A DNA stretch of 64,000 nucleotides from a virus, in the IMG/VR virus record IMGVR_UViG_3300028840_005911, positions 128,447 to 192,446 of that record; one strand, 5' to 3'. A program made the translations under genes and the position numbers. Positions 10,631 to 30,832 of the stretch are shown piece by piece. A model generated the notes under the pieces. The model searched no databases, was not told the origin of the DNA, and worked only from the letters and a program-made list of their open reading frames with translations. Every line of letters starts with the position of its first letter. Position 1 is the stretch's first letter.

Positions 10631-10950
10631 TTCTTCGCCTTCCTCATACCTTTGGCAGCGGCCTGAGCAGCGAGTTGCTGCTGTTGTCCAATCGCCATTG
10701 CCGCGCCCATCGTGGCCACACTACCAAGAGTCCCGGCTACCATCTTGAAGAGCTGGGGGTTCTTTATCAGATTGGGAGCCAGCTTCCTTATGCCGGGCTC
10801 TATCCCAGCTGCCAGGGCCATCCCTGCACCCATCCCGACTCCAGAAGCGAGCGCGTTCTTCAGAACCTGCTTCAAGACCGACTGGTTGACAGGAAGACTC
10901 TCCTCCTGAGCGATCTTCTCGAGCTCGTCTATGCAGGCATCGAAGTTCAT
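10627..10950 (-). CDS. small glycine-zipper protein with IDELEKIA leader
   Basis: MNFDACIDELEKIA leader; two GxxxG hydrophobic helices. Confidence 0.7.
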   Translation of the reverse strand: MNFDACIDELEKIAQEESLPVNQSVLKQVLKNALASGVGMGAGMALAAGIEPGIRKLAPNLIKNPQLFKMVAGTLGSVATMGAAMAIGQQQQLAAQAAAKGMRKAKK

Positions 10951-11828: not shown

Positions 11829-13505
11829 TCATCCACCAAGCAACTGAGAAAGGTCTACTCCCTTGGACTTGGCCCACTCGAAGACTGAGTTTTTGCCAGC
11901 TTCGAAACCCTCTTCAAGGCCCATGTTTCTGGCCTTCACGGCTGCATTCTCGGCTACCTCTTCCAGTCTCTGAAGACCGCCTGCGGCTTCCCTACCGAAG
12001 GTCTGCGCAGCCAGTCCTCCCAGCCCACCTACAGCCGCCCCGGTGAGTCCGCCGATGGCAGCCCCCCGTGCTGTCTGACCCTCAGGGGCACCGATGGCAC
12101 CTGCTCCGGCTCCACCGAGACCAACCAACCCAGCTCCTACAGCTGCGGGACTGGTGGCCACCCCTTTGAGCAGCGACTTGATGCCCGACCCTGCAGCTGC
12201 TCCCTCTTTACGCAGGGTCGGTGTGCTAGGGACCTGACTCCCTTGGGGAGCGTTCCCAGTCAGTGCTCTGTGGTAGAGGGCCGCGCCGATGAGCGCCCCC
12301 TTACGGAGACCCATGAGAGCCCCGCTCCGGATGCCCTCCTGTTTACCGATACCGTACCCCCTGGCCATCTGAAGGTTCTGGATGGTACGTTCCTCCTCAG
12401 CTTCTTCACCCCCAACTCGCCTGCCGAGGGCCCGTCCACCGACGGCTCCTCCGGCCAGTCCCAGTCCCGCGCCGATGGCTGCACCAAGCCCGGTCCTGCC
12501 GGCCAGTCGACCGATCCCGGCGCCCAGACCTGTACCGAGGGCGCCACCTCCGAGACCTCCGAGGATTCCTCCTCCAATGCCGTACTGGCGCTTCATGAAT
12601 TCCGGGTCCACTCTCTCACGGGCTTCCTCGAGCGCCTCACGGAGCTCCTCTGGAGTTGCAGCAGTCTTCTCCTTCACAGCTTCCTTGATGGCCTTTACTC
12701 CCTTGCCGGCAAGCATACCACCGAGAGCTCCACCGCCGACTGCCCCAGCCCCGTAACCGAGAAGACCAGCCGGTAATCCAAGTCCGGGCCTTTTCAGGGC
12801 TCTGGATATCAAAGCGCCGAGACTTTGGCCTGCGGCGGCGCCTGTGATTCCGCCAATGCCAGCTCCGAGGGCTCCGGCGGGCAGTCCAGCGTAGCCCCCT
12901 GCCGGGCCCCCTTCTGCTGCTCCTGACATCATCCCACCTACCGTACCGGCAAGAAGGGGCAGGTGCTCCGGCCCAAGAACGACGCCAGACTTCTTCTCTT
13001 TCCAAGGCTTGATCGGCCCCTTGTATGGGGGGCCCTGTTCTTGCTTCCCAGGCTTGCCTTGGCGGGCAGCGATGCGGGCCTTCATTTCGGCCGGCATGTC
13101 AGGATGATCCCGCTTGAGAGCGCGGTAGATCTCCTTGACCTTCTCCGGGCGGTCCTGCTCTGTGAAAGAGGGCATGTCCTTTTTGGCCAGCTTCTCCTTG
13201 ATGGGAACCCCGACAGGTCCTTCACCTTTGCCGACGCCCTTTCCCCTGCCTTTGCCCTTCGACTTGATCTTTCCTCCGGGGCATTCCTCGGCAGCCACCT
13301 TGCGCATGCCGCACATGCACTTCAGGATGGACCCGGTCTTCACCATGCCTCGCCCACACTGTGGGCAGTTGTCCTCGGGCATAAAGACCCCGGCCAGTTT
13401 GGCAAGATCCTCCGCCGGGAGTTTGGAGAGCTCCTCGGAGACTGTGTTCTTGGTCTCAATCTCCCCGGCTTCATTCTTCAGTTCCTCGAAATACTTGTCC
13501 AGCAT
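11829..13505 (-). CDS. modular Gly-rich virion protein (Zn ribbon, GKG module, glycine zippers)
   Basis: 558 aa; CPQCG...CMCG; three GxxxG-rich hydrophobic blocks separated by KxA motifs. Confidence 0.7.
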   Translation of the reverse strand: MLDKYFEELKNEAGEIETKNTVSEELSKLPAEDLAKLAGVFMPEDNCPQCGRGMVKTGSILKCMCGMRKVAAEECPGGKIKSKGKGRGKGVGKGEGPVGVPIKEKLAKKDMPSFTEQDRPEKVKEIYRALKRDHPDMPAEMKARIAARQGKPGKQEQGPPYKGPIKPWKEKKSGVVLGPEHLPLLAGTVGGMMSGAAEGGPAGGYAGLPAGALGAGIGGITGAAAGQSLGALISRALKRPGLGLPAGLLGYGAGAVGGGALGGMLAGKGVKAIKEAVKEKTAATPEELREALEEARERVDPEFMKRQYGIGGGILGGLGGGALGTGLGAGIGRLAGRTGLGAAIGAGLGLAGGAVGGRALGRRVGGEEAEEERTIQNLQMARGYGIGKQEGIRSGALMGLRKGALIGAALYHRALTGNAPQGSQVPSTPTLRKEGAAAGSGIKSLLKGVATSPAAVGAGLVGLGGAGAGAIGAPEGQTARGAAIGGLTGAAVGGLGGLAAQTFGREAAGGLQRLEEVAENAAVKARNMGLEEGFEAGKNSVFEWAKSKGVDLSQLLGG

Positions 13506-13514
13506 GGTCTTCTC

Positions 13515-14117
13515 CTAGTAGCCGTAGCCGGGTTGAGGTGTTGGTTGAGATCCCAGCATGTAGGCGCCGAGACCAATCGGCACAGAAGCGCCAATTGCCA
13601 CGTTCAGTGGGTTGATCTTCCTGCCGCCCTTCCCCATGACCCACTTGCTCTTGCCAGAGACAACTTTCGGGACCCCTCCCAGCTGCCACTGGCTAGTGCC
13701 GGTCGCAACGCCCGGCTTCATCCCGAGTCTCTGAGCATAGGTACCGAGTCTCTTCTTCAGGATGCCTGCCCCAGCCTTCAGCCCACGGCCGATACCGAGG
13801 CTCCCGAGACCTTTCAAGAGGGCGATTCCGGCATTCTTCTCGATCTCATCCGCCCAGTTGACGTAGAACTCTGCGAGCTCGTTGCTGCCGGCCATCTTCT
13901 GGAGGCCGTCGAAGTTGCTTGCGACCTCATAGGCCAGGTCCCAAGGCTCCTTGCCGATCCCATAGGCCAGCTTGACGAACTTGGGGGTGAGAGCTCCGGA
14001 CTCCCATTCCTCCCGCTCGAGGTCGTAGAGATACTGCACCTCTGCAGTCTTCTCCATTGGAGGTCCGCAGAGGTCGAACAAAGTGTTCAGGTTCTGGACC
14101 AGGCTTTCAGAGTTCAT
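13515..14117 (-). CDS. KxA-motif virion protein with C-terminal hydrophobic helix
   Basis: EKTAE, VKLAY, QKMAG, DEIEKNAG; C-terminal IGASVPIGLGAYML. Confidence 0.65.
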   Translation of the reverse strand: MNSESLVQNLNTLFDLCGPPMEKTAEVQYLYDLEREEWESGALTPKFVKLAYGIGKEPWDLAYEVASNFDGLQKMAGSNELAEFYVNWADEIEKNAGIALLKGLGSLGIGRGLKAGAGILKKRLGTYAQRLGMKPGVATGTSQWQLGGVPKVVSGKSKWVMGKGGRKINPLNVAIGASVPIGLGAYMLGSQPTPQPGYGY

Positions 14118-14126
14118 GGTACACCT

Positions 14127-14261
14127 CTACGGGATCCAGTAAAACAGGACCCACTGGCCGTCTTTCTCGATGATCTTGACGATGTTGGCCGTGGCGACTG
14201 GCTCATCGTTGATGAACTCCACCATGGCATCGGCAGTCGCAAAGTGTACATGCGCAAGCAT
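14127..14261 (-). CDS. 44-aa protein missed by the ORF track (MLAHVHFATADAMVEF...KDGQWVLFYWIP)
   Basis: AAGGAGGAG RBS; fills the gap exactly; similar to both ends of ORF 28944-29327. Confidence 0.75.
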   Translation of the reverse strand: MLAHVHFATADAMVEFINDEPVATANIVKIIEKDGQWVLFYWIP

Positions 14262-14270
14262 GGCTCCTCC

Positions 14271-14762
14271 TTACCACGGGCCCAAGAGGTTGTTGACGTA
14301 GGCGTATTCGGAGTGTAGCCCGTCGCCATCCAACGCCCATTCGATGTTGAGAGCCTGGAGGGCCCTGAGCTTCTTCTGCTCGTAGTTGTTCTTGAACAGC
14401 TGAAGAGCAGCCTGGATCATCTGGGGGTTCTCCGTCTGCACGTTGATCCCACCATCCGAGTACGCCAGGTAATTCCTCATGTGGAGGATCATCAGGGACT
14501 CGAGAAGGGAGATGACCACCCCACGGATGAAAAGACCCCTCCAGTTTCTCTCCATGAGAGTGTCGAGGTCAGATATCAGAAAGGGTGGGGTCGATGACCA
14601 GTCACTGACCGCGTCCAGAATAGCCCATGCAATATGCCTATTGCTGTGGTCCACCCCCTCAGTCAGCCGGTTGAGTTCCGGAAAGTCTCGAAGAAATAAC
14701 CGTACATCACCGATCAGAGTCCGAGTGTGGGGGCTGTTCAGGATATCCTGTACCCCGGCCAC
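14271..14762 (-). CDS. putative head-tail adaptor
   Basis: Helical 163-aa protein (VRLFLRD...LFIRGVVISLLESL) downstream of MCP. Confidence 0.55.
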   Translation of the reverse strand: MAGVQDILNSPHTRTLIGDVRLFLRDFPELNRLTEGVDHSNRHIAWAILDAVSDWSSTPPFLISDLDTLMERNWRGLFIRGVVISLLESLMILHMRNYLAYSDGGINVQTENPQMIQAALQLFKNNYEQKKLRALQALNIEWALDGDGLHSEYAYVNNLLGPW

Positions 14763-15218
14763 TTACTCCTCCTTCTCCTCTTCCTTCTTCTTGCCACGGC
14801 CCCGCCGCTTCGGCTTCTCTTCAACCTTCTCCTCAGGCTTCTCTTCGCTGGCCTCGAGGATCTCGGGAACTTCCTCGGTCGTCTTCTCCTCGACCTTGGG
14901 CTCCTCTTTTGGGGCCTCTTCGGGCTTCTCCTCCTGAGGCTCCTCCGCCTTGGTCTCTAGAAGAGCACCGTGAGCGAAGACACCGTTCAAGGGCTTCTCA
15001 GCCTTGGGAGGCTTCCTGGCCTTCAGGTAGTCTTCTGGGGGAGTCTCACCGAGGTGAGCCAGGCCGGCGGCGACTTCCTTCATGAGCTTGCGGGGGTTCT
15101 TGAGGGCCTCGTCGGGGACACGAACGAAACGACCCGGAGCCACTGAGCGGCCATAGAGGAAGAGGTTCTGTGCCTCCACATCGGTCTCGGGATGGTCTGA
15201 AATGTTCCATACCTTCAT
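14763..15218 (-). CDS. hypothetical protein with Glu/Lys-rich tail
   Basis: Coupled ORF; low-complexity C-terminus. Confidence 0.6.
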   Translation of the reverse strand: MKVWNISDHPETDVEAQNLFLYGRSVAPGRFVRVPDEALKNPRKLMKEVAAGLAHLGETPPEDYLKARKPPKAEKPLNGVFAHGALLETKAEEPQEEKPEEAPKEEPKVEEKTTEEVPEILEASEEKPEEKVEEKPKRRGRGKKKEEEKEE

Positions 15219-15221
15219 GCT

Positions 15222-15707
15222 CTACTCCTCTTCGTCGGGCTCCATGAGTGCGTCGATGATCTCGCCCTTGGTCTTGTAGTCCTCGGGGTCGAGTCCGTAT
15301 TCCTCTGCGAGCTCGTCCAGCTCCTCACGCTTCATCTTCTTGAGAAGCGCTTCGTCGAGGAACTCGGCATCATGCTCACCGGCGTCATCTTCGCCTTCAG
15401 GTTCCTTCTCGGGTTCCTTTTCGGGGGCCTTGGCTGCCACCTTCCCGCCGGCCATCTTGATCAGATCGTCAGCGGTGAGCTCGGCACCGGTCTCCGTGGA
15501 GACGACGGAGATCCACATCTCCTCAATGCCTTCACACAGCTTCTCCAGGTTGGCCTTCAGGGCACCCTCGTCGAGCTCGGTGCCACGACGTCCGCGACGG
15601 CGGATACGGGTACCATCCTCGAGCAGGAAACCGGTCCTTCTACCGGAACGGAGGACCCGCGCAGTCCTGCTGATCTTCTTGTGGGCCAAGTTCGTTACTA
15701 GGATCAT
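15222..15707 (-). CDS. protein with C-terminal HeH/Rho-N-like helical motif
   Basis: LKKMKREELDELAEEYGLDPEDYKTKGEIIDAL; GGAGG-type RBS. Confidence 0.6.
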   Translation of the reverse strand: MILVTNLAHKKISRTARVLRSGRRTGFLLEDGTRIRRRGRRGTELDEGALKANLEKLCEGIEEMWISVVSTETGAELTADDLIKMAGGKVAAKAPEKEPEKEPEGEDDAGEHDAEFLDEALLKKMKREELDELAEEYGLDPEDYKTKGEIIDALMEPDEEE

Positions 15708-15722
15708 GGGAGTCCTCCGGAC

Positions 15723-15788
15723 AATCGAGGTTGAGTCCTGGCCACGGAGGATGGAGGCCTTACCCGCAACCAGGACTCAACCTCAATC
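15723..15788 (-). terminator. long stem-loop downstream of the major capsid gene
   Basis: 15-bp perfect inverted repeat GAGGTTGAGTCCTGG/CCAGGACTCAACCTC, 19 bp with G.U pairs; no U-tract. Confidence 0.55.
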
Positions 15789-15813
15789 AGGTTGGTGTCT
15801 CAGTCAGCTTCCC

Positions 15814-16938
15814 CTAGTACTGCTGCACTGCGGGGAAATGCAACCCGTCATCTACCCTGTTGTTGATGGCACCGAGGTCCTCCTCAGCGCTCGGAATCTT
15901 GGCCTCGAACCCGGTGTCGGTGGCCGTGGGGCGAACCGAACCGCGATAGAGCTCGAGCTTCCGGCAGGAGGCGATGTTGATGATGCCGATTGCGATGTCC
16001 TCCCAGCTCTGCCAGGTGATGACGTTCGCGATCTTGTCGATGTAGAACTTCGTGTTGTTCAGGATGTAGAACTTCCCGAAGAACTGCGGAGCGGTGAACA
16101 CGTACACGTTGCCGGTACGCAGGATGTCCGTCTTCACTGTGCGGATCACCTTGCGGCCGAGCAGGGTGTTGTACTTGTACCCGTCCACGACGGTCTCGCT
16201 CTGGATGCGGTCACCGAAGTCCTCGACGGTCCACTGGAGCACATCGTCGTGGTCCCCCTCGGTCAGGAGAACGCGCTCGCTGCGCAGACGATTGTTGTCC
16301 AGGAGCTTGAAGAGGTTCACGAAGTCCGGGCGCTGGATCGGACGAACGGTGAAGTCCGTACCGTCAGCCGCCAGGGCCAGCTCACCCTTGACCACGGAGA
16401 CCACCTGCGCGTTGACATTGCCGGCGCGGATGTTGGTGGCGTTGTACTCCACGGTGGTCGTGGTGTTGGTCTCGGTCTGCAGAGCCTGCACACCGGCCTC
16501 GATGTGGCGCAGGAACTCGCGGTCCTCGATCTCCTGGATGTCCTTCACCGTGTTGTCCTCGATGACCTTGGTGATGGGCATCTCGTAGGCGAGGAGCTCC
16601 TGCTCGGGCTTCTCGAACTTCTCCGAGCTGATGGTGAAGAAGGGGACTTCGGCCTTGGGCGCACGCACGAAGCGGGCGGTAGGCTGGCTGCGGAAGTCAA
16701 TCGCCATGGCGCGGGACTGGGGTTCCACGTCGACGATCTTCACCAGGGTGTCGTGGTTGGTGCTGCGCTGGCAGTCCGTTCGGGTCACCTGCTCGGGGGG
16801 CAGGATGTGACGGCTGAACGCCACTTCGCGCAGTCGGTCACGAATCCACGATCCGCCCAGCTCGGCGGTTTTGTCCTTGCCTTCCTGAGAGTCGAGTCTC
16901 TGATTGAAGAGCTCGATTGCTGCTTGTACCATACTCAT
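15814..16938 (-). CDS. major capsid protein (HK97-like)
   Basis: 374 aa after protease/scaffold genes; strongly GC3-biased codons; MCP-like segments (IRDRLREVAFSRHILPP, YVFTAPQFFGKFY). Confidence 0.8.
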   Translation of the reverse strand: MSMVQAAIELFNQRLDSQEGKDKTAELGGSWIRDRLREVAFSRHILPPEQVTRTDCQRSTNHDTLVKIVDVEPQSRAMAIDFRSQPTARFVRAPKAEVPFFTISSEKFEKPEQELLAYEMPITKVIEDNTVKDIQEIEDREFLRHIEAGVQALQTETNTTTTVEYNATNIRAGNVNAQVVSVVKGELALAADGTDFTVRPIQRPDFVNLFKLLDNNRLRSERVLLTEGDHDDVLQWTVEDFGDRIQSETVVDGYKYNTLLGRKVIRTVKTDILRTGNVYVFTAPQFFGKFYILNNTKFYIDKIANVITWQSWEDIAIGIINIASCRKLELYRGSVRPTATDTGFEAKIPSAEEDLGAINNRVDDGLHFPAVQQY

Positions 16939-16960
16939 GACTATTCTCCTTTCTTTCTCA

Positions 16961-17437
16961 CTAGCCGTGGAAGGCGGACACGAACCGCAGCCAGCCGTTG
17001 TTGTTGGCCGGCAGGCGGGTCACGTAGCCCACGACAAAGCCGGCACTCTGCTCGGCCAGGCCGCGACGGATGATGCCTGCACCACCGAGGTCGAGGTCGA
17101 AGACCGCCAGCTGATCGCCGATGGCCAGACCGGTGGAGTCCATGACCTTGGTCTCGGCCTCGTACATGGTCATGTACAGGATCGGACCCTTGCCAAGGGC
17201 CTGGGTCTCGTAGCGGCCCCGTTCCGCGAAGTACGCGAAGGAGGGGACCGTGGCCTCGTCGGTCATGTCGCCCGCATTGTCACCGCCGCGATCCATCTTG
17301 TAGGCGGTGTCCAGCTGGAGCCACTCACCCTCGATGAGGGGGCGTACGTTGTCGGGGTTGAGAATCGCCGGCGTAGCCATCTCGAAAGACCGGCGATGGA
17401 TGTTCTGGAACTCACTGATGAGTTTGAAGTAGTTCAT
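16961..17437 (-). CDS. putative capsid decoration/stabilising protein
   Basis: 158-aa beta-rich protein immediately upstream of MCP. Confidence 0.55.
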   Translation of the reverse strand: MNYFKLISEFQNIHRRSFEMATPAILNPDNVRPLIEGEWLQLDTAYKMDRGGDNAGDMTDEATVPSFAYFAERGRYETQALGKGPILYMTMYEAETKVMDSTGLAIGDQLAVFDLDLGGAGIIRRGLAEQSAGFVVGYVTRLPANNNGWLRFVSAFHG

Positions 17438-17468
17438 TTTCTATTCCTCCGTTTCTTTGTTTCCTGTC

Positions 17469-17816
17469 CTATCGAGGGTCTTCGCCGGTCATGACGAAAT
17501 GCTCGAAGGGGTGGGTTCCGTTGCCGGGGATCTCGGACAGCCCGAACATATTCGACTGAGGAGAGGCCAGCTTGATGGCTTCCTCGGTGACGTCCAGGTT
17601 CTCGACCTCCTTGAGAGCAGCAACCTTCGCTTCGATGGTGAGCTCGTCATTGAGGCCTTTCTCCTCCATCTCTTGAGCAATCTTGACGATCCGCTCGTCC
17701 CGCTCCTTGGCAGCGATCTTCTCCTTGAGATCCCTGTTCTCGTCGACGAGATTGCGAATCGCGGCCCCTGCCTGCTTCAGAAGGGCCTTGGCTTTCTGGG
17801 AACTGATCTTTTCCAT
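17469..17816 (-). CDS. coiled-coil scaffold-like protein
   Basis: Heptad-rich; EKIAA, VKIAQ, AKVAA, IKLAS motifs. Confidence 0.6.
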   Translation of the reverse strand: MEKISSQKAKALLKQAGAAIRNLVDENRDLKEKIAAKERDERIVKIAQEMEEKGLNDELTIEAKVAALKEVENLDVTEEAIKLASPQSNMFGLSEIPGNGTHPFEHFVMTGEDPR

Positions 17817-17842
17817 CTTAGTCCTCCTAAACGGCGTTGGGC

Positions 17843-19315
17843 CTACATTTGACCAGTCGGAGGCATCGGGGGAGCTGCAGCAGGAGCTCCGGCGGGAGCC
17901 GCCGCAGGTGCCGCACCGGCCGGAGGCATCGCAGGCGGTGCCATCGGAGGGGGTGCTGCTTGACCTGTAGCAGGCGGAGCGCCGGCGATCATGCTCTCCT
18001 TCTCTGCCTCTGACATCTGCTGGGACTCTCCTTCCGCCGCTGCGTCCGCGATGGCCTGTGCGGCAACCATCTCTTCGGGAGATGCCTCACCTGCCATACT
18101 GGCCTCTTCAGGGGTGAGATCCGCCCCTTCGGCCATCTTCACCAGGACCCCGATCTTCTTCTTGATGTCGGGATCGGATGCAGCGAGCTTCTTGAGAAGT
18201 TCCCGTGCCGCTGAAATCTTCACACCTGCTTCCTGGGTGTTATCCAGCGACTCGTGAAGTGTCTTGTCATGGGTCTTGGACATGGCCGGCTCGGTGAGAA
18301 CCTCTGCCAGCTGACCCTTGTTCTGCTGTTTGGCCTGGCCCTTGGTAGCGTCGATGGCGGCATCGTTGCTACCGACCAGCTCACGGCCTCCACCGGCGCC
18401 TTCGGTCGGGGCTGCCTCACGAGGAGTCAGCTCACCAGCCTCGGAGCCCTGGGACTGTGCCGGGGGGACGCCAGCCGGGGACTGAAGGTCCGGGGTGGTT
18501 CCGCCCTCGATGGCGTGTCCCTGTTGGCCGATCTTGGCCGGGTTGATGGCGTCTTCGGCCAGCTTGCCGAGCAGGGCCTCAGCAACGTTCTTGGGAACGT
18601 GGCCCTCTTCTGCCATCTTCTCGGTGAACTCGGAGGCCTTCTTCAGGGTCCCACCACCTGCGGTCTCGGCACCAGGCTTCTTGGGGTCCTGAACAGCAGA
18701 CACCTGCATGGCCTTCTGTGCCATCGCGGGGGTGATCTGCTTGCCTTCCTTCTCGAGGACCTCACGGACTTTGGCCTGGGCCTGCTTGAGGACATCCTCA
18801 GGCTGCTCGGCCATCATCATCTCTTTGTTGGTCTCGAGGGCGTTGGGGGCGTCGGCCGGGTTCGGCTTCTCCGACGGGGCGACCGCCTTCGGGCTCTGAT
18901 GGCCCGGGGTGGCCTCGCCACTCTCGCCGGCGTCCAGGGAAGTCCCAGGGGCGTCGGCCTGTTCTGCCTTCATGGCAGTTCCGGGCCCGCCGGGCAGAGG
19001 CGCCCCGCTGTCCAGGGGCGGATTCTGAGGAATCTCGTCCTGGGCCGCCTTGAGGAGCTCCTCGTGGACGGTTGCGTACTCGGCCAGCTTCTCTTCGGCA
19101 GAGCGGTCGTCGATGACTTCGTGGAGATGGTCCGCCAGGTAGTCACATCCCTCGGCGATCTTCATGATCTCGTCGAGGTCGGCCTCCTGGGGATTCTCTT
19201 GAGCAGCGACTTTCTCCTCTGCCTCCCCGCCCGTTTCAGCCTCAGCTGTCTTGAGCATAGACTTCGAGCTGGCGAGGACCTGGCTGACCATTTCCATGAT
19301 GGAAGTATTACTCAT
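17843..19315 (-). CDS. scaffold/core protein, acidic and Pro/Ala-rich
   Basis: 490 aa with about 11 KxA motifs; lies between protease and MCP. Confidence 0.65.
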   Translation of the reverse strand: MSNTSIMEMVSQVLASSKSMLKTAEAETGGEAEEKVAAQENPQEADLDEIMKIAEGCDYLADHLHEVIDDRSAEEKLAEYATVHEELLKAAQDEIPQNPPLDSGAPLPGGPGTAMKAEQADAPGTSLDAGESGEATPGHQSPKAVAPSEKPNPADAPNALETNKEMMMAEQPEDVLKQAQAKVREVLEKEGKQITPAMAQKAMQVSAVQDPKKPGAETAGGGTLKKASEFTEKMAEEGHVPKNVAEALLGKLAEDAINPAKIGQQGHAIEGGTTPDLQSPAGVPPAQSQGSEAGELTPREAAPTEGAGGGRELVGSNDAAIDATKGQAKQQNKGQLAEVLTEPAMSKTHDKTLHESLDNTQEAGVKISAARELLKKLAASDPDIKKKIGVLVKMAEGADLTPEEASMAGEASPEEMVAAQAIADAAAEGESQQMSEAEKESMIAGAPPATGQAAPPPMAPPAMPPAGAAPAAAPAGAPAAAPPMPPTGQM

Positions 19316-19327
19316 TTTTCGGTCTCC

Positions 19328-19591
19328 TTAGGTTCTCACCGGGGGCGGGGTAACCGCTTTGCTCTGTGCAGCTGTACCTTGCGCCGCCCTTGGTGGTTGC
19401 GAGTTCACTACGGTGTAGTTTGTTGACTTCACTTCGGACTTCAAAGAGGTAGAGGGCTTCTGTCCGGTGGTGACGGTGGCCGGCTTCGTCGGAGAGGAAA
19501 CAGCAATATTTGACGTAACAGGACCAATGGCCTTGTTCGCCGCTATCTTTGTCAGCTCATCCATGAACGAAGCCAGCATCACACTGTCCAT
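19328..19591 (-). CDS. small protein with FMDELTKIA leader
   Basis: GAGG RBS; shared leader followed by a Ser/Thr/Pro-rich tail. Confidence 0.65.
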   Translation of the reverse strand: MDSVMLASFMDELTKIAANKAIGPVTSNIAVSSPTKPATVTTGQKPSTSLKSEVKSTNYTVVNSQPPRAAQGTAAQSKAVTPPPVRT

Positions 19592-20460: not shown

Positions 20461-23268
20461 TCATGCCGATGTTCCACGAACGATTCGACCGCCGGCCTGC
20501 TCGAGCTCCTGGGCAGCTTGCTGAGCCTGCGGAGTCTTCATGATCTGACGGATTGCCGCTGCCCCACCCATTGCGGTCAGCCAGGGGTGATCCGCAATGA
20601 GCTTCGAGAGGATATTCAGATCCTCCCCTTGCTGAGCTTCTCCACGGAGGTGTGCAGAGTACATGAGGGTCAAGGGGATGGACCCCAACACGGCAAGGAT
20701 AGTATTCCTGTCCGGGACCCGGATACCGCCTCGTAGAGCTGGTGGCAATTGAATTTCCCCTACCTTGAAAATGTCGCTGTCCCTCATGTCGTAAAGACCG
20801 GCCTGTAGCTCCGGCTCTTCCGAAATGATCTCGGGTGCGTATGTCGCAGCCTTTATCATCTCTCGTCGATACCAATTGTAAGCGGACGAAACTTTGGAGA
20901 GAAGGGGAGACTTGGAAATTTTCTCCGATACGTCCCTTTTTGGGGCAATGGTTATGCGAACCACACGCCGTTCCATCACCGGCTGCGCGTAGGACCTCTC
21001 CTCCAAAAAGGGGAGAAGTTTCCGCATGAGGTCCTTTAGGAAATATTGAGGGCCGAGCTGGTCGCATAGGGGTGTTTCTCCAGAAGCGGGTCCGAATATC
21101 TCTCCCCGCCTGCCGAAGTGATCAGCGAGTCCTTTCTGACCCAGGCTGACCAGAATGATTCTCTGGAACTCCCTTGGACGGAGCACCATCCCCATAAGAG
21201 ATGGCGTTGAGAGCGCACTTCGTAGGTCACCTTTTCCAAGCTCATCCAACACCTCTATCGGAAGGTCGGGTTCCCTCTCAGCCAGCAGCGGGGAAACTTT
21301 CCCTATCGCCGCCTCCGGGCCGATTTCTTTTACTATCTCAGCCCACTTTTTGTGGGAAGCCAGCTTGAAAGGATTGATGGCCGCTGTCTTTTCCATGTTA
21401 GAGAAGCTGTCACCGAGGCCGGAGCCCACATGGTAGGTCTCTTCTCCACTCACCTTGTTCCTCCAGATCCTTTCCCGGCGGACGGGCTTCTTTGAGGAAA
21501 ATAGGTCCTCGAGCTTGATATCCGCAGCTATCTTCTCCAAGGATGCCACCTTCTCACCCTTAACCTCTCCCTTGATAACCTTCTTGAAGGTCGTCATCGG
21601 CATGATGGTCATGGACCTGAAGAACTTTGGGCTGTCGTAGTGCTTCAGATAGGCACCCTTAGCCTCCTCCGGGGAGTTGAAGCCCAGCATGGCCTTGTCC
21701 TCATCGTACTTCCCAGTCTTGACGAAGTTCTGGTGGACGATATACGCGAACTTGGCCTTGGGGTTCGGGCCTAGGTAGACGTCCAGGCGGTCCTTGTCGG
21801 TCCCCTTCGTGCCCAGGATCTCGCCGTAGGCGTTGATCATCTTCGTCTTCCAACCCTTACCCTCACGAACACTGCCAGGCTTGTTCTCGATGTAGATCTT
21901 CAGCCCTTGGAAGACCGCAGTACCTTCGTAGGGGTACTCCTTCCTGTTTGGGGTCGGAGGCGGGCCGATCTTGATGGCCGCCGTCTTCTCGTCTTTCCCC
22001 TCGAAAAGGGGGCAGACGCCTCCAAGCTCGATTGGACCGTCCACCAGATCACATCCCTGCGGCTCTATGAAGTGCTCGCAAACCCCGCACCTCTTGTTCT
22101 TGTCAGTCTCCGAGGTCGGCATATATCCGGCCTCATCTTTGCTATAGGGAGGGGTGGTACTGGTCTGGGCCACCTTCATAGGCGGGGTAAAAGGGTCCTC
22201 GATTTGGGTTTCTGATCCGTGTTTTGTGAGTATGAATCGTGCAAGGTTCTTGCTGAGGTTCATCCTCTTAGCCACGGTCCTGAGATCCTCGGTAGAGACT
22301 TCCTTCGAGGCCGGGGGTGGAGGAGCCAACTTCTCGATCTTGACCTTCCCCTTGCCATCTGTCTCGAGCCCGCTGACCAGGTAGTGTTTCTTCGGTTCAC
22401 CGGTAGCTTCACGAGCCTTCTCAATCTTGAAGGAGGATACGGAGGCGGCTTTCATGAGTCCCTCCTCGGGCATTGGTCCGTACAGATGGTCGGCATCCAC
22501 AATCGATTGTGGGAGATGCTCGACAGAAGCCAGCTTAGACATAACCCAGGAGGTCTTGTCTGCTCCGATGAAGACGAAGCTGATATCGAAGAACCTGGGG
22601 TACGGGTTGTCCACCGATACCTGCCTGCCGTCAGGAAAGATGTGGCCCATCCCATATTTCTTGATATGGATGCAGTAATCCTTACGTGTCTTGGATTTGT
22701 TCCCACAGATCTCGCAGATGTCGTACGGCGTCCTGCAGCCCATCGATGTCGAAGGATAGTGACCGTCGTCTATCTTGGCTACTACCTCTGCAGCGCCATT
22801 GCACAGGGCCTTGTCTCTGTTGACCAGAACAACTAGTTCGACGCGCTTCATAGCCGGGTTGAGACAAGCCACTTGGATGGTGCCGAAGGCTCTGTTGGGA
22901 TCTTTATTGCGGTGGTGAGCAAAAGCGTGAGCTGTATAGAATGTCCAATACCCGTAGGGAGGGATTATCTTGTTGGTGAAGTCGTCTATTCCGTGGTCTT
23001 TCGGACCATGGGTACGGCAGTCGTGCTCCAGTACGGGCCACCTGAACCGGTCGCCGTTGACGTTACTCCCGTAGTACTCTGATGCGCCGAGGGCGTTCAC
23101 CAAGAGAGCGATGTTCTCCATGTCTGACTTGTAGGTGCCAAGCCAGTCTTGGATCTCCGGCATGACCGGACCGGCCAGCTTCTTGATAGACTGCCCCGGC
23201 CGGAAGATCTGCACGAGCGGCTCCCCGTCTGGAGCTACGCCCGAAAATGTGGAGAGCTTGGTCAGCAT
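20461..23268 (-). CDS. prohead maturation protease polyprotein
   Basis: N-terminal HK97/assemblin-like domain (AHHRNKD His, STSMGC Ser, FFDISFV..GAD) with a CxxC..C.H finger; further modules follow. Confidence 0.75.
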   Translation of the reverse strand: MLTKLSTFSGVAPDGEPLVQIFRPGQSIKKLAGPVMPEIQDWLGTYKSDMENIALLVNALGASEYYGSNVNGDRFRWPVLEHDCRTHGPKDHGIDDFTNKIIPPYGYWTFYTAHAFAHHRNKDPNRAFGTIQVACLNPAMKRVELVVLVNRDKALCNGAAEVVAKIDDGHYPSTSMGCRTPYDICEICGNKSKTRKDYCIHIKKYGMGHIFPDGRQVSVDNPYPRFFDISFVFIGADKTSWVMSKLASVEHLPQSIVDADHLYGPMPEEGLMKAASVSSFKIEKAREATGEPKKHYLVSGLETDGKGKVKIEKLAPPPPASKEVSTEDLRTVAKRMNLSKNLARFILTKHGSETQIEDPFTPPMKVAQTSTTPPYSKDEAGYMPTSETDKNKRCGVCEHFIEPQGCDLVDGPIELGGVCPLFEGKDEKTAAIKIGPPPTPNRKEYPYEGTAVFQGLKIYIENKPGSVREGKGWKTKMINAYGEILGTKGTDKDRLDVYLGPNPKAKFAYIVHQNFVKTGKYDEDKAMLGFNSPEEAKGAYLKHYDSPKFFRSMTIMPMTTFKKVIKGEVKGEKVASLEKIAADIKLEDLFSSKKPVRRERIWRNKVSGEETYHVGSGLGDSFSNMEKTAAINPFKLASHKKWAEIVKEIGPEAAIGKVSPLLAEREPDLPIEVLDELGKGDLRSALSTPSLMGMVLRPREFQRIILVSLGQKGLADHFGRRGEIFGPASGETPLCDQLGPQYFLKDLMRKLLPFLEERSYAQPVMERRVVRITIAPKRDVSEKISKSPLLSKVSSAYNWYRREMIKAATYAPEIISEEPELQAGLYDMRDSDIFKVGEIQLPPALRGGIRVPDRNTILAVLGSIPLTLMYSAHLRGEAQQGEDLNILSKLIADHPWLTAMGGAAAIRQIMKTPQAQQAAQELEQAGGRIVRGTSA

Positions 23269-23868: not shown

Positions 23869-24125
23869 GGCATCCTCATCTTCGTGAGTTGACTTGCGGG
23901 AATGTTATGGCGAAGACCGAGCCTGGCCTTCTTCATCTGCTGTGCCAGGTGGGCACCACCCCACAGAGTACCTCCGGCTACGGCCGCCTGACCAGGGTGC
24001 TTCCATGCGTAGCGTCCCAGGCCCCCAAGCATCTCGGTGCCTCTGAGAAGAGCCCGGGGGAGTAGCTTGGCGATGCTACCCTCCTTGGTCAGCTCCTGGG
24101 AGACTCTACTGAGCCTGAGCAACAT
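23865..24125 (-). CDS. small protein with ELTKEG motif and glycine-rich helix
   Basis: Start moved to MLLRLS (ATG 24125); AAVAGGTLWGGAHLA. Confidence 0.55.
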   Translation of the reverse strand: MLLRLSRVSQELTKEGSIAKLLPRALLRGTEMLGGLGRYAWKHPGQAAVAGGTLWGGAHLAQQMKKARLGLRHNIPASQLTKMRMP

Positions 24126-25365
24126 GGCTCTTCTCCATGGCTTGCTTGAGGACACCGTCGACTTCCTTGAGGTTGTCGAGGACAACGTCAGCGGCCTTGG
24201 CCAGCTCCCTGTACCCCTTCGCCATGTCATTGAAGGCCGAGAAGGTCTTGACCAGCTCGTTGTCCGGGTTGATGGTCCGGTGAGTAGCCGCCTTCTCCAT
24301 GTCGTACCTGATGACGTCGACCTGGGTCTGGGTCAGATCGAGGCCTCGATTGACCAGCCTGGGGACGATCTCCTCCATGGCCTCCTTGACGATGTCGGCG
24401 TCCCCGACCTTCGACAGAGCGTGGGTGATCTCTCCGAGAGTGACTCCCTCATAGAGACTCTGCTCGATCATGTGGGCCATGCTGTCGACAGCCTCCTTGA
24501 TCATGTAGGCGTTCTTTACCAGGGCCTGGCTGGAATCCTCTGCCATCTTCACCAGCTTATGGCGCACCCTGACGAGGTCACCGAAGGGGTTGCTCTGGGG
24601 ATACTCTTCCTTGCCGCAGGCAAACTTCTTGATGGACTCCAGTGAGACGCCCCGACCCAGGTCGTCACGCACCAGGTCGGCGTGTACCCCGCCGAGCTTC
24701 ACGTGCTCCATGGCAGACTTGCCCAGCGCCTCCTCTTCCATCTCCTCGAGACGGGTATAGTAGTCCGGGATCTCCGCCAGGTGGTCCTTGGCGATCTCAT
24801 GGGACAGGCCAGGGTCGTTGGTGTGTTCCATCTCTACCTTGTCGCCCATCCTGAGCTCGGCCGGGTCGAACGCTGTGTCGGGCCTGTTGTCGGCGAGACC
24901 TCCCTTCAGCCTGTCCTTCGCCATCTTTTCCATGACGGGGCTGACCGGCTCCATCCCGAACATCCTGCACAGGACGTCGTCTGCGGTCAGATTCCTGTTC
25001 ACATCGGCAGGCGGGGCGGTGAAGTATTCCTGGTTGGCTGCCGTCTTCTCCACCGGGCGTGCATCCTTGTCCAAGGTGCCAAGCACAACATCCGGATCGG
25101 CGATGTCGAAGTTCACGTTCTTGTCTCCTGCCTGCTTCTCGAAGATGGACCGGAAGGTATCGACGTTGGCGAACTCAACGACCCTCCGGATCTGGTCGCT
25201 GGAGATGTCGGGATGCTGACGGACCTCTGAGAGGACAGCGTCGTTCAGAGACGCCACCTTGTCCAGGTACATGTCAGCTGCCCGACGGCCCATGATCTCC
25301 AGGTCCGTGGTTGAAAGATCCGCATGCGGAAGTTGCCTTTCGAGACCGAGGAATTTCTCATCCAT
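24106..25365 (-). CDS. KxA-rich head protein with DUF5661-like insert
   Basis: LKGGLAD...KVEMEHT.D...EIAKDHLAEIPDYYTRL motif; many KxA sites. Confidence 0.65.
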   Translation of the reverse strand: MDEKFLGLERQLPHADLSTTDLEIMGRRAADMYLDKVASLNDAVLSEVRQHPDISSDQIRRVVEFANVDTFRSIFEKQAGDKNVNFDIADPDVVLGTLDKDARPVEKTAANQEYFTAPPADVNRNLTADDVLCRMFGMEPVSPVMEKMAKDRLKGGLADNRPDTAFDPAELRMGDKVEMEHTNDPGLSHEIAKDHLAEIPDYYTRLEEMEEEALGKSAMEHVKLGGVHADLVRDDLGRGVSLESIKKFACGKEEYPQSNPFGDLVRVRHKLVKMAEDSSQALVKNAYMIKEAVDSMAHMIEQSLYEGVTLGEITHALSKVGDADIVKEAMEEIVPRLVNRGLDLTQTQVDVIRYDMEKAATHRTINPDNELVKTFSAFNDMAKGYRELAKAADVVLDNLKEVDGVLKQAMEKSHVAQAQ

Positions 25366-25442: not shown

Positions 25443-25790
25443 GTGGGAAGGATTGTGTATGATGGAGAGACAGTTGTTGATCGGGAAGAAGCCCTTGAGA
25501 TTTTAGGGATAAGTAAGCGCTGGCTGTGGGATCTCGTCAAACAAGACATCATTTTGACGGTCAAGCTCCCGGAGGAGAAGAAACCTTACTACTACCTGAG
25601 AAGCATTGAGAGTTACCAGAGGGCCAAGAAGCTCATCAAGAACCGTACCGGGGCAATCATCCGACTTCTCACCCGGGTAGACGAGCTCGAGCACAAAATG
25701 TCCTGGTTGATGAACAATATGCCTGCCCCGATAGAAGAGTACCACGATATCCGGAAGATCATGAACAAGAACCACCCCGACCTTTTCTAA
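25443..25790 (+). CDS. MerR/Xis-like winged HTH protein with coiled coil
   Basis: DREEALEILGISKRWLWDLVKQ HTH; GTG start after GGAGG. Confidence 0.7.
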   Translation: MGRIVYDGETVVDREEALEILGISKRWLWDLVKQDIILTVKLPEEKKPYYYLRSIESYQRAKKLIKNRTGAIIRLLTRVDELEHKMSWLMNNMPAPIEEYHDIRKIMNKNHPDLF

Positions 25791-27595
25791 CGGTCGATGT
25801 CCCACTCCTCCTTCTCGCCGCTATCCTTGTCCAGCTCCTTGACTGGTGTGATGATGTCCGGCCTCTTCCTGAAGTGGAACGACGCCAGGAAACAGAACAG
25901 GGCTGAGTGAAAAGAGTCATCGGGACATCCCGGGGCGTGCTTGTACACATCCATACGCAGTCTGTCATTGTACTCTGAGAATATATTCAGGAAGTCTCCA
26001 GCGAAAGGTTCCTCAAACTCCTCCCATCTCGGGTATCGAAAGACGTCCCTTCTCTTGACCGCATTAAAGTAGTCCGACATCACCTCGGTCCGGTGGCAGA
26101 CGTACCTCGGCACTCCGAGCTGGGGGTCCCACTTGATCTTTCGCTTGACGTTGCCAACCCACTGGTACTTCTTGATCTTCTCAGCTCCGTACTGCCGCAC
26201 TAGGGTATCGTTGGGCCAGAAACCACCACCATAGTCTGCGCCAACGTAGGACACGTTGAACTTGTCGATGAGCCTCATGATCTCTCTGATCTGAACCTCC
26301 GGCTCTGACTCGAGGCCTTCGAACCTCTTGAAGTAGAAGTACACGAACTCCTCCCCGGATGTGATAGGGAGGTACGCAGCGAGACAGACAACGGTGAAGG
26401 CGTTCTCACTACCTCCGCTCCAGTCGATACCCATGAACACCGGGTAGCCGGAGGAGTACTTCTCGGCCACCTCCAAGTAGTGTTGCATCGATAACTTGCT
26501 CCAGCAGTTGTCCCTGACATCCTGCCGGGTGAGTGGACGGGTGCCGGAGTCATAGCTAAGTCCGAGAACCTCGTTGTAGAACTTCGCCCTGCTGTACTGC
26601 CTCTGCTTGTGGAGGATGTCATCCCACTCTACCCAGGGGACCATGAGCTGAGGAATGCGGTAACCTTCAAACGGTTTCTCGACCCGGGGCTTCGGATTCA
26701 ATGAAGCCCATTGCGCGTCGGGGTCCATCGGATGTATGGGTTCTCCGCACTTGTCACAGATGAGCCCTTCCTTGCCGATGTTATCTTCAGCCAGGATGTT
26801 CCAGTGCCACGACCCCTTGTTCTTTGGGGTGCCATGATGCCGGCAGGGTACCACCCACTCGTTCTGGGTAGAGAACTTGGACCAGTAGTGCTCAATGGTA
26901 CCGTCCAAAGACTTCGGGGTACCGCTGTAGGTGTGGAGCTTGTAGGATGAGTGGGATGCACACTCCTCGATAACCGGGATGTTATCCAAGAGAACATCCT
27001 GGAGCTCATCTATGTTTATCATGTCGGCTGGGACACCTCGAACGCGGTCCGCATTAAGGAAGGCAAACCTCATCGTGATCTGACTACCGTTGATGAACTT
27101 CTTCTCGAGAATGTTGGACAAGAGTTTGGTGTTGGTCAGGGATCTGATCTCGGGGGAGACCTCTATCGGCTCTTTGACCCTGTCCCGGCTGAACACTTTG
27201 GTCTGGGTGTTGGACGGGCTGACGTAGAGGGATCTGAAGTAGGGTATCAGGCTACAGTACGTTAGTATCCTGTTGCCCACGTAGCTTGATTTTTCAACTT
27301 GGCGTCCCGCCTTGAGGAGCAGCCTCTTATGGCTAGTGTCATAGATGGGGCGGAGATATCTACGCTCCTCGAAGTTGAAGCTCTTGAGCTCCCCTCCGGC
27401 AGGTATCTTTATAGCAAACTCAGTGAACCTCGAGGGTGGTACGTCCAGCTTGTCGGTATTGTCCAAGTCTAGGAGGTCTTCACCTTCTTGTGCAACAGGG
27501 CAGTTGGAATACCATTTGAATGCCTCATCCTCATCGATGGAGGCTCTCTTCTTATGAGATGTAGCTTGACCAAACTGTCCCGAGGTCACTATCAT
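25787..27595 (-). CDS. terL: terminase large subunit
   Basis: Walker A-like LKAGRQVEKS, Walker B INIDELQD, YSGTPKS coupling motif; nuclease FMGIDW and PDDSFHS. Confidence 0.88.
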   Translation of the reverse strand: MIVTSGQFGQATSHKKRASIDEDEAFKWYSNCPVAQEGEDLLDLDNTDKLDVPPSRFTEFAIKIPAGGELKSFNFEERRYLRPIYDTSHKRLLLKAGRQVEKSSYVGNRILTYCSLIPYFRSLYVSPSNTQTKVFSRDRVKEPIEVSPEIRSLTNTKLLSNILEKKFINGSQITMRFAFLNADRVRGVPADMINIDELQDVLLDNIPVIEECASHSSYKLHTYSGTPKSLDGTIEHYWSKFSTQNEWVVPCRHHGTPKNKGSWHWNILAEDNIGKEGLICDKCGEPIHPMDPDAQWASLNPKPRVEKPFEGYRIPQLMVPWVEWDDILHKQRQYSRAKFYNEVLGLSYDSGTRPLTRQDVRDNCWSKLSMQHYLEVAEKYSSGYPVFMGIDWSGGSENAFTVVCLAAYLPITSGEEFVYFYFKRFEGLESEPEVQIREIMRLIDKFNVSYVGADYGGGFWPNDTLVRQYGAEKIKKYQWVGNVKRKIKWDPQLGVPRYVCHRTEVMSDYFNAVKRRDVFRYPRWEEFEEPFAGDFLNIFSEYNDRLRMDVYKHAPGCPDDSFHSALFCFLASFHFRKRPDIITPVKELDKDSGEKEEWDIDR

Positions 27596-28943: not shown

Positions 28944-29327
28944 TTACACCTCGTAAAACAGGTACCATCGACCATCTTTTTGCCTGATGTCTACGATATC
29001 AGACGCGGCTGCGAAGATGGCCGCCAGGGTAAGGTTGAAGGTGGCATCGTCGTTACCTGAGCCTCCGGTGACCGACACCGGGTTGGTCGGGTCGGTGGTG
29101 TACGCCCCCTCGAATTCTACCGCGATACCATCGATGACTTTTCCGGTCTCGCTTGTGACCTTGAGGGTAGCAGCAACCTCAAACCCTCCACCGACTACGG
29201 TCAGGATGTCGTCCACTTCGTACCCGTTCCCGCCAGCCACTATGGCCGCGTTGGTAACCTCCTTGGCGGCGCCGGCGAAGGTAGTGAGGGCATCCGGAGA
29301 CTCGAATTGAAGTACTCTTACTGCCAT
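28944..29327 (-). CDS. small structural protein with inserted beta domain
   Basis: Ends resemble the 44-aa ORF at 14127; central GGNGY..DDILTV.GG...GGSG..ATF module. Confidence 0.65.
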   Translation of the reverse strand: MAVRVLQFESPDALTTFAGAAKEVTNAAIVAGGNGYEVDDILTVVGGGFEVAATLKVTSETGKVIDGIAVEFEGAYTTDPTNPVSVTGGSGNDDATFNLTLAAIFAAASDIVDIRQKDGRWYLFYEV

Positions 29328-30832
29328 GTCCTGATCCTTTCGAGTTCGTTGAAGAACGCTGCCTTCTCTATGTCACCTTTGTCCAGGTGCCATTCTTTGA
29401 ACCTGGGCTGGAACATGGCTCCCAGGCTACCGTCCTTCTTTTTGAATACCTTCCTAGCTTTCACTTTGGCTACTCTCCCTACGTAGGCATCTGGGTCCTC
29501 AAGCATGCGCCGCCCCTCCTCGTGTTTGAACCCACCTACCTGTCCTACTATAGGACCATCCACCGTCCATGAGTAGCTCACTGACCCGGCCCTGTCCAAG
29601 GTCTTCCCGTCCTTGCTGACCGCTGGGTTCACCTTCCGCGCCACGACGTCGAAGTCGGGCAGCACCTTAGCCTTCACGGGCTTACTGGTCTCACCTTTAC
29701 TGACAAGGACTACCCCTTCATCGGTGAGAGGATACTTCTTAGACTTGACGGCATTGAGTAAACCAATCTTCTCCAATGCGCCGATAACCATCCTCGGGAG
29801 AGGGAGCTCTTCTATCTCGTCCGTCACCTTCTCGAGGATCTTTATCTTCTCCTCGAAAGGTTCCTTGCTGACATCTTTCCCTTTGTACTTGAGGACATTG
29901 AATGGGATTGGGACCAGCTTGATACCTGACTTGGCCTGCTCTTCTCTGCTCCTCCACACCTTGGCATTGAGAAGGCCACCAAGCTGCTCTGCGGGTATGG
30001 CCTTGCCGTCTTTCAACCTGACCCCGATGGTCTCGGCAAGCAGGAGCGTGTTATCGAGCTCCTTCGGCACCTTCTGTTTCAGAAGCTCCGGCATCTTGTG
30101 GGTGTGCTCGATGAGTCCAGTCTTCGCCCTCTTAGCAACCCGGTACGAGAAGGCCCGGGGCGCCCTCCCAGCCTTCAGGTCCAAGACGGTGTGGGCCCCG
30201 TCGAACTTCGGCATCATCACCTGGGTGTCGTCGGTGGGGTCGACGGAGTCGATGTCGATCTCTTTGTAGGTCTCCTTACCCGAAGGGATGTCAGGCCTCT
30301 TGGACCGGGTCTGTGTCTTGTTGTGGAGGAACCACTTCCCCTTGCCATCGGTCCGTATCGAGTACTCCTCTGGCTGGTCGCCCTCGTACAGGTTGAACCT
30401 GAGCTTGGTCTCCTTGTCCTCCCCCGGCTTGGCGTGGTAGACCTCAGCCTTCTCCCGCCTCCCCTTTTTTACTACACCTTTTCCGTAGGTCGTTGTGATG
30501 GGACCCGTGTAGTCCATGTACGGGACCTCGTGGTCGAACGTGGGGATAACCCTCACGGACTCCCCAGGTCCGGGAAGATCAGACCGCTTCGGCATTACGA
30601 ACGAGTGGGCGATACCGGTCTCCGGGTTGCCAAATCTGATGTCGGTATGTAGCCCGGCCCTCTCAGCAAGGTGTGGGTGAGCAGAGAACTCCCATGTCTC
30701 CGGCTCGGTTACAGTCGGGAGCCCGCTACGGTGTCTTGCAGGAACCCCTGGCCCAAGATAGCCCTTCTCGTAGTGAGGCTTCTCACCTCGAGTGACAGCC
30801 TCGGCAGCCTTGGACAGGAGGTACAGATTCAC
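29318..30832 (-). CDS. LigD-type 3'-phosphoesterase fused to ATP-dependent DNA ligase
   Basis: PE motifs Hx7HTDIR and FDHEVPY; ligase motif I PKFDG, III LAETIG, IIIa FNVL, IV EGVVL, V KAK; OB domain ending QPRFKEWHLDK. Confidence 0.82.
   Translation of the reverse strand: MNLYLLSKAAEAVTRGEKPHYEKGYLGPGVPARHRSGLPTVTEPETWEFSAHPHLAERAGLHTDIRFGNPETGIAHSFVMPKRSDLPGPGESVRVIPTFDHEVPYMDYTGPITTTYGKGVVKKGRREKAEVYHAKPGEDKETKLRFNLYEGDQPEEYSIRTDGKGKWFLHNKTQTRSKRPDIPSGKETYKEIDIDSVDPTDDTQVMMPKFDGAHTVLDLKAGRAPRAFSYRVAKRAKTGLIEHTHKMPELLKQKVPKELDNTLLLAETIGVRLKDGKAIPAEQLGGLLNAKVWRSREEQAKSGIKLVPIPFNVLKYKGKDVSKEPFEEKIKILEKVTDEIEELPLPRMVIGALEKIGLLNAVKSKKYPLTDEGVVLVSKGETSKPVKAKVLPDFDVVARKVNPAVSKDGKTLDRAGSVSYSWTVDGPIVGQVGGFKHEEGRRMLEDPDAYVGRVAKVKARKVFKKKDGSLGAMFQPRFKEWHLDKGDIEKAAFFNELERIRTWQ

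Follow-up and report, generated by a model that had tools for sequence, protein, structure and literature searches.

In phages T4, phiKZ and SPN3US, which have the head proteases gp21, gp175 and gp245, respectively, a short linear motif marks many head proteins, including the gp21 substrates IPI-III and Alt, and leaders are removed from them. The motif is L/I-x-E in T4 and S/A/G-x-E in phiKZ-like phages, and processed internal proteins, such as the inner-body and ejection proteins of SPN3US and phiKZ, stay in the head and are then ejected. In P2 gpO, lambda C/Nu3 and the herpesvirus assemblin precursor, the protease is the N-terminal part of a longer self-cutting chain of the head interior, and herpes assemblin cuts after alanine in V/L-x-A↓S. 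The polyvalent proteins described by Iyer et al. (2017; PMC5512222) are many-domain proteins predicted to be packaged and injected, with a peptidase domain as the proposed processing enzyme; according to these authors, the assemblin peptidase invariably lies at the C terminus. Here we analysed a 64,000-nucleotide stretch of viral DNA (the window), the final 64 kb of the complete 192,446-bp virus record IMGVR_UViG_3300028840_005911 with direct terminal repeats, and in it a 935-residue open reading frame (ORF), P0001. P0001 is, we think, fairly likely to be a prohead protease built as a self-cutting polyprotein with swappable modules, for which K-Φ-A (Φ being L, I, V, T, A, M, F or S) is the recognition motif. 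An earlier note on this DNA had read P0001 as such a protease, carrying modules that resemble high-potential iron-sulfur proteins (HiPIPs) and inorganic pyrophosphatases (PPases) between K-x-A sites; its observation was confirmed, and its interpretation is largely supported.

Consistent with the prohead protease that the earlier note had called, we found that the N-terminal domain of P0001 matches T4 gp21 by fold. An AlphaFold2 model of the protease region, made with 37 sequences, had a predicted local distance difference test score (pLDDT) of 76 and a predicted template modelling score of 0.74, with residues 1-32 disordered (pLDDT <50). Foldseek against the PDB placed three T4 gp21 chains (5jbl) at the top with a probability of 0.97-0.99, followed by herpesvirus proteases. 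VIA-align superposed the model on 5jbl_B with a Z score of 11.1 and a root-mean-square deviation of 2.7 Å for 139 of 164 residues, and about 25 herpes assemblins followed well below at Z 5-7. A Pfam search with residues 1-262 gave no match, a whole-family profile run against the PDB did not reach gp21, and PHROGs returned a weak match to the head maturation protease phrog_18299 (E = 1.5e-5, residues 107-204). Residues H118, H119, S175, D228, C185, C188 and C199 were invariant across 37 family members. H118/H119 and S175 are the probable catalytic residues, with a spacing that we take to resemble that of gp21.

The protease domain is also present in phages that have been isolated: tblastn found it in Vibrio phages D181, D148 and D69, in Salmonella phage Arash (gp222) and in Bacillus phage G (gp19). 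Phage G gp19, which is placed between portal gp14 and capsid gp27, was named a head/capsid maturation protease in a 2025 paper, where cleavage data for gp19 were looked for and none are given (PMC12484599). Arash gp222 has a comparable head-module setting, between packaging and capsid genes, and was found in purified virions with 16 peptides (PMC10585845). Inside the protease domain we also noticed a knuckle, C185-x2-C188-x10-C199-x-H201 (residues 185-201; window positions 22666-22716, minus strand), which is probably a zinc site. Position 201 is histidine in P0001 and cysteine in most close homologs; the knuckle is kept in Arash gp222, and phage G gp19 keeps its first three cysteines.

The K-x-A series that the earlier note had listed along P0001 was recovered in full and in the order given, as nine sites: K245 (KLAS), K273 (KAAS), K313 (KLAP), K365 (KVAQ), K428 (KTAA), K573 (KVAS), K579 (KIAA), K627 (KTAA) and K635 (KLAS). 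Altogether P0001 has 12 K-Φ-A motifs, compared with 2.7 in shuffled sequences (P ≤ 0.0005), and 3 copies of the reverse motif. Nine head-block proteins contained 43, compared with 11.9 in shuffles (about 3.6-fold), with 10 reverse motifs, and nine non-head proteins, including RNA polymerase and terminase, contained 17, compared with 15.8 in shuffles. Across the complete 192-kb genome, the motif occurred 1.19 times per 100 amino acids in the head block and 0.22 times elsewhere, where the reverse motif stood at 0.21. A strict six-residue form, [LIVMF]-x-K-Φ-A-[ASEQGNP], separated the two further (0.63 versus 0.04 per 100 amino acids), and all eight ORFs with at least two strict sites lay in the virion-gene region, at 10.6-45.9 kb of the window.

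The position and conservation of the sites follow the edges of domains. The HiPIP module of P0001 is flanked by K365 and K428, and its PPase-like domain (InPase) by K428 and K573. The K30, K245, K273, K573, K635 and K641 sites were invariant or nearly so among close homologs, K30, A32 and G33 of the N-terminal leader being invariant in 10 of them; the K579 and K627 sites were kept in most of ten aligned sequences (<90%). Among 116 homologs, K-Φ-A was densest in linkers and variable parts (2.04 per 100 amino acids), followed by the C-terminal domain (1.07), the protease domain (0.74) and the InPase domain (0.43). A site lay within three residues of the end of InPase in 87 of the 116, and exactly three residues after it in 80. 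Immediately after the protease domain, K-Φ-A is also found in phage G gp19 (EKVAS, LKIAS) and Arash gp222 (EKVAN), and it is enriched in Arash gp220 (7 versus 1.6) and gp225 (5 versus 1.0) and in gp19 and gp21 of phage G. Many head proteins carry N-terminal leaders of 8-35 amino acids that end in K-Φ-A, and in the major capsid protein the site is conserved as EGK[ED]K[ILVTM][AS]E at the same position in 49 related loci. A protease recognition motif shared by a clade would be expected to show this pattern at the level of sequence.

Leaders ending in K-Φ-A-[AE] were seen on many virion-region ORFs (window positions 10627-19591 and 29318-30832, minus strand), and they look like removable targeting leaders. 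Examples are TKIAA at residue 15 of an 87-residue ORF, EKLAE at 23 of a 261-residue ORF, LKTAE at 22 of a 490-residue ORF, DKTAE at 23 of the capsid protein, EKTAE at 23 of a 200-residue ORF (13515-14117) and SKAAE at 8 of a ligase-like ORF.

From the identities of the domains and from the enrichment, position and conservation of the motif, we infer the following course of events. The P0001 chain would go into the prohead, and its protease domain would cut at hydrophobic-x-Lys-hydrophobic/Thr-Ala-[Ser/Ala/Glu], the putative recognition site of this protease clade, both in its own linkers and in other head proteins. The scissile bond may lie after the alanine, as in herpes assemblins, whose site resembles the K-Φ-A-S of P0001. 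Predicted products are the N-terminal leader, a protease of about 240 residues, small linker pieces, a HiPIP module of about 63 residues, an InPase of about 145 residues and a helical domain of about 300 residues. Two of these predicted sizes match free-standing domains: stand-alone relatives of the HiPIP module commonly have 57-86 residues, and the Pfam InPase model has 135 positions. Folded products of these dimensions would probably remain beside the DNA and exit together with it on infection. K-Φ-A is probably where the protease cuts its own chain, so that exchangeable enzyme cargo seems to be loaded into the head as a single self-cleaving polypeptide.

One possible alternative is that P0001 is an uncut multidomain (polyvalent) head protein and that K-Φ-A serves proteins of the head interior for docking, targeting or helix capping. 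The motif does occur in helical proteins rich in lysine, alanine and glutamate, such as the scaffold-like 490-residue ORF, but it is directional (43 forward and 10 reverse motifs), it lies in disordered linkers at domain edges and not within domains, it stands at the end of N-terminal leaders, like the targeting sequences of T4, and in very distant phages it comes immediately after the protease domain. Several points weigh against a cutting motif. The shuffles do not preserve local composition, so that helices rich in K, A and E could favour K-Φ-A, a bias addressed by the reverse-motif control only; no N-terminal K-Φ-A site is present in the capsid protein of Arash or in that of phage G; and peptide-level termini were looked for in the Arash paper and its supplements and are not given there (PMC10585845). 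Whole transfer of some polyvalent proteins has also been noted (Iyer et al., 2017; PMC5512222). Taken together, we regard an uncut protein as rather improbable and a self-cutting polyprotein as the better reading.

If so, Φ-x-K-Φ-A-[S/A/E] is the predicted cutting rule for a large clade of gp21-like head proteases, so far unstudied, which includes those of cultivable phages (Arash, Vibrio phages D69, D148 and D181, and phage G). Such a rule would predict from sequence alone which proteins enter the head and are processed there. In its logic, the predicted processing matches that of T4 and phiKZ heads. P0001 shares its protease fold with T4 gp21 and differs from the T4, phiKZ and SPN3US systems in two respects: its motif is Φ-x-K-Φ-A, not L/I-x-E or S/A/G-x-E, and the protease is covalently fused to its cargo, in cassettes that are swapped between relatives. 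Like P2 gpO, lambda C/Nu3 and the herpes assemblin precursor, it has the protease as the N-terminal part of a longer chain; by contrast, the C-terminal parts of those proteins are scaffolds and not enzyme or redox modules.

The smaller of the two modules in P0001 resembles PioC of Rhodopseudomonas palustris TIE-1, a 54-residue HiPIP (PDB 6xyv) that acts as a free periplasmic electron carrier. A phmmer search of whole P0001 against PDB sequences matched residues 375-425 to residues 5-53 of PioC (E = 4.6e-5), with about 41% identity over 51 residues by hand count, in agreement with the HiPIP-like call made earlier. The cysteine pattern on which that call was based is exact and lies where the earlier note had placed it (C394-x2-C397-x8-C406-x12-C419, positions 21994-22146). 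All four cysteines align with those of PioC at identical spacing, and the conserved tyrosine and the hydrophobic pattern are shared. A HMMER search of residues 368-432 against 1.84 billion representatives gave 84 matches at E ≤ 1e-3, mostly proteins of 57-150 amino acids, with stand-alone ones commonly of 57-86. In the alignment of these relatives the tyrosine and three cysteines are invariant and the fourth cysteine is present in at least 90% of sequences; the consensus is Y...RCGxCxHF..P..C..V.G.I...G.C.LFE. The family profile matched six PDB sequences, all of them HiPIPs: PioC (2.3e-16), 3h31 (1.1e-6), 1isu (1.1e-4), 1hlq (2.7e-3) and two weak ones. Since this profile matches only HiPIPs in the PDB whereas the Pfam model PF01355 is not reached, the module is, judged by its sequence, a divergent PioC-like branch of the HiPIP family, and these 63 or so residues are probably a [4Fe-4S] protein.

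It is also conceivable that the four cysteines bind zinc as a small structural knuckle, or no metal at all, the module then being a HiPIP-derived scaffold without redox function. Several observations weigh in this direction and against a cluster-binding module: PF01355 did not match the isolated module even at E = 10 and matched 7 of 44 relatives, weakly; a few relatives have serine in place of the fourth cysteine; and the module has valine where HiPIPs usually have tryptophan before the last cysteine. Moreover, unlike PioC, the copy in P0001 lies within a polyprotein of the phage head and has no signal peptide or twin-arginine (Tat) export signal, and a phage head is an unknown setting for a HiPIP. 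Against this, the cysteine spacing is that of PioC, a solved [4Fe-4S] HiPIP, the invariant tyrosine and a G-x-I-x3-G-x-C-x2-F pattern are kept, and the family profile matched no zinc ribbon in the PDB. We therefore consider a zinc-binding or metal-free module unlikely and favour a [4Fe-4S] protein. If the cluster is real, a redox cofactor would be carried within a virion.

The relatives of the HiPIP module are largely viral. In the ESM Atlas, the clusters nearest to the module are proteins of about 63 residues that are labelled 90-100% Viruses, with 36-45% of the members carrying PF01355. Among small relatives, P0123 (86 residues) is the closest; it is encoded in P22-like contigs of 38-40 kb, upstream of the portal gene and, in the single contig covering that side, downstream of the small-terminase gene. 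Two larger relatives are head proteins themselves: the major head protein P0148 (phrog_21712) has the module at its C terminus, and P0169, from a different head-protease family (phrog_15531), has a copy at residues 415-469. HiPIP-family modules recur as a phage head-associated domain that is unmentioned in the searchable literature, in which searches on phage HiPIP or PioC found nothing relevant. The family profile found one copy in the virus's own complete genome, in P0001 (E = 1.9e-24), and no copy in five complete related genomes of 178-193 kb. No module was found in the other 119 top homologs of P0001, and tblastn against 50,697 isolated phage genomes gave no match at E = 0.01, so far leaving the module known from metagenomes only. 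PHROGs had no match to the module and four small relatives, nor Pfam to ten longer HiPIP-bearing proteins.

Several relatives have further features. A tandem pair of HiPIP-like modules is found in metagenomic proteins P0122, P0130, P0134, P0139, P0141, P0145 and P0147. P0160 and P0162 (939-1125 residues) have two HiPIP-like modules each and no Pfam domain, P0160 being encoded on a 22.6-kb contig of unannotated genes (locus L003). P0129 appears to have a twin-arginine leader, as judged by inspection of its N terminus by eye.

The second module is a type I pyrophosphatase-like InPase domain. The stretch IENKPGS...DEDKAMLGF, which the earlier note had called pyrophosphatase-like, coincides with a match to Pfam PF18823 at residues 448-566 (positions ~21571-21927; E = 8.3e-35, 120 bits against a gathering cutoff of 26.8, model positions 11-135 of 135). 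Its acidic residues E461, E483, D491, D493, D496, D522, E523 and D524 are invariant in close homologs, and we take them to be equivalent to the metal-binding residues of E. coli PPase. The same InPase clade forms the C terminus of portal gp19 in PDB 9b41 and of many Pseudomonas phage portals (Pbunavirus-type, phrog_4660), so that in both settings it is attached to a protein of the head interior; there it sits on the portal C terminus with no sign of release, whereas in P0001 it is a bracketed cassette behind the protease. As a point against catalysis, the whole-family profile reached only the portal-InPase chain in the PDB and not family I PPases. The catalytic assignment therefore draws on Pfam and on Iyer et al. 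(2017; PMC5512222), who described the clade in phage polyvalent proteins, its portal fusion and its association with NUDIX and GNAT, and the domain may have pyrophosphatase activity. That a PPase could aid early transcription is not a new idea, because these authors already proposed that pyrophosphate clearance does so; they considered nucleotide-like substrates too (PMC5512222).

The modules may also be cut out and yet be used only in assembly or lost from the head, as scaffold-like filler or for pre-packaging work in the infected cell, with no delivery to the next host. Scaffold fragments exit T4 and HK97 heads after cleavage, and the HiPIP product, whose retention we infer, would be just ~7 kDa. 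However, the portal C terminus that carries InPase in Pbunavirus-type phages is a permanent virion location (PMC5512222), and Arash gp222 is present in purified virions, as its 16 peptides attest. A role confined to assembly thus seems to us quite improbable, and we favour delivery of the cut modules with the DNA.

The architecture of protease, InPase and C-terminal domain is common to more than 1000 metagenomic homologs of P0001, and other modules take their turn in it. Bracketed by K-Φ-A in more than 100 homologs, the inserts include NUDIX (P0041), GNAT (P0052, P0080), SET (P0067) and DUF5661 (P0037, P0042). Module boundaries in homologs, like those of InPase, coincide with K-Φ-A, so that the refuting condition set in the earlier note, insertion boundaries unrelated to K-x-A, did not arise. 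The variable region that precedes InPase is 187 amino acids long at the median (up to 643), and the one that follows it 86 (up to 334). In P0001, residues 245-367 belong to this variable part: K245 and K273-A-A are invariant, and the remainder differs in length and content between homologs. A head protein of 419 residues encoded beside the terminase also carries a DUF5661 module (PF18905, residues 170-212, E = 5.5e-13); since the same domain is an insert in the protease homologs P0037 and P0042, cassettes appear to move between head proteins. In more than 1000 phage proteins from the environment, the protease gene can be seen as a vehicle for enzyme cassettes that replace one another. We rejected an assembly chimera or a fused gene call as the origin of P0001, since over 100 independent contigs show this architecture.

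These proteins are like the polyvalent proteins of Iyer et al. (2017) in that a virion protein is made up of many domains, among them an InPase of the same clade, which often has NUDIX and GNAT next to it: P0001 combines protease, HiPIP, InPase and C-terminal domain, and its relatives add NUDIX, GNAT, SET, DUF5661 and inteins. They differ in that the peptidase is N-terminal, in more than 1000 proteins and without exception among the family members examined, that HiPIP is absent from the domains of that paper (0 occurrences) and that a cleavage motif is not defined there (PMC5512222). The cassette architecture therefore widens the concept of polyvalent proteins and turns around the domain order stated for them. 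A more ambitious reading is that tailed phages carry HiPIP-type [4Fe-4S] redox proteins in the capsid, released at K-Φ-A, a cleavage motif not described before, or fused to a capsid protein or to a protease of another family, and that on injection along with the DNA these influence redox or electron-transfer chemistry in the host at the onset of infection, with the protease polyprotein as a general cassette system for InPase, NUDIX, GNAT, SET, DUF5661 and HiPIP. We offer this tentatively, as possible but doubtful.

The C-terminal domain, described in the earlier note as helical with hydrophobic helices, gave an all-helical model (pLDDT 82) and is conserved throughout the P0001 family. Comparisons of this domain on its own gave little: Pfam had no useful match, the best Foldseek match in the PDB had E = 1.6, BFVD returned a single match (an uncharacterized family member), VIA-align against 48,161 chains reached at best Z 6.0 with a helical hairpin only, and the ESM Atlas returned nothing usable. 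It perhaps serves as a tether, either to the capsid interior or to the scaffold, or has a part in ejection. Ahead of it, between two K-Φ-A sites, lies a mini-segment with KLEDLF ... RRERxW ... GSG (residues 582-617, window positions 21418-21525, minus strand), whose LEDLF core resembles acidic-aromatic leaders of other head proteins, for example ELFNQRL in the capsid protein and FMDEL in the 87-residue ORF. Inteins (PF05203, PF14528, PF13403, PF14890) were found within many of the homologous protease polyproteins, among them P0002, P0034, P0040, P0057, P0062, P0066, P0069, P0074 and P0075.

On the genome, P0001 is encoded between large terminase and major capsid protein, amid unannotated head-module genes. 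The minus-strand block runs, in order, large terminase, 419 residues, 199 residues, P0001, then 261, 87, 490, 115 and 158 residues and the major capsid protein. Coordinates of these features are collected in Table 1.

Table 1. Features of P0001 and of the surrounding locus, in window coordinates
Feature	Position	Strand	Basis or remark
P0001, predicted protease-cargo polyprotein ORF, 935 aa (amino acids)	20461..23268	(-)	open frame
N-terminal leader, aa 1-33, ending in the K30-L-A32-G33 site	23170..23268	(-)	invariant residues in homologs
Putative prohead serine protease domain, T4 gp21/assemblin fold, aa ~34-244	22537..23169	(-)	model and fold match
Variable linker region, aa 245-367, sites K245, K273, K313, K365	22168..22536	(-)	homolog alignment
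Putative HiPIP-family (PioC-like) four-Cys module, aa 368-430	21979..22167	(-)	lies between K365-V-A and K428-T-A
InPase (type I pyrophosphatase-like) domain, aa 431-575, then K573-V-A	21544..21978	(-)	Pfam PF18823
Conserved linker mini-segments, aa 576-637, sites K579, K627, K635, motifs LEDLF, RRERxW, GSG	21358..21543	(-)	conserved alignment columns
All-helical C-terminal domain, aa 638-935, hydrophobic helices near end	20464..21357	(-)	model pLDDT 82
Major capsid protein	15814-16938	(-)	phrog_2522
K-T-A-E site, aa 23-26 of major capsid protein, predicted substrate site	16861..16872	(-)	conserved in 49 loci
Large terminase	25787-27595	(-)	phrog_675
Fused beta/beta' RNA polymerase, 2063 aa	35399-41590		

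Three further minus-strand ORFs of the window are rich in K-Φ-A. The 419-residue head protein beside the terminase (24106-25365) has 8 motifs against 1.3 expected, and a 663-residue ORF (32267-34258) has 7 against 1.95. A 1109-residue ORF (42558-45887), which contains an intein (Hint and LAGLIDADG), has 7 against 2.2.

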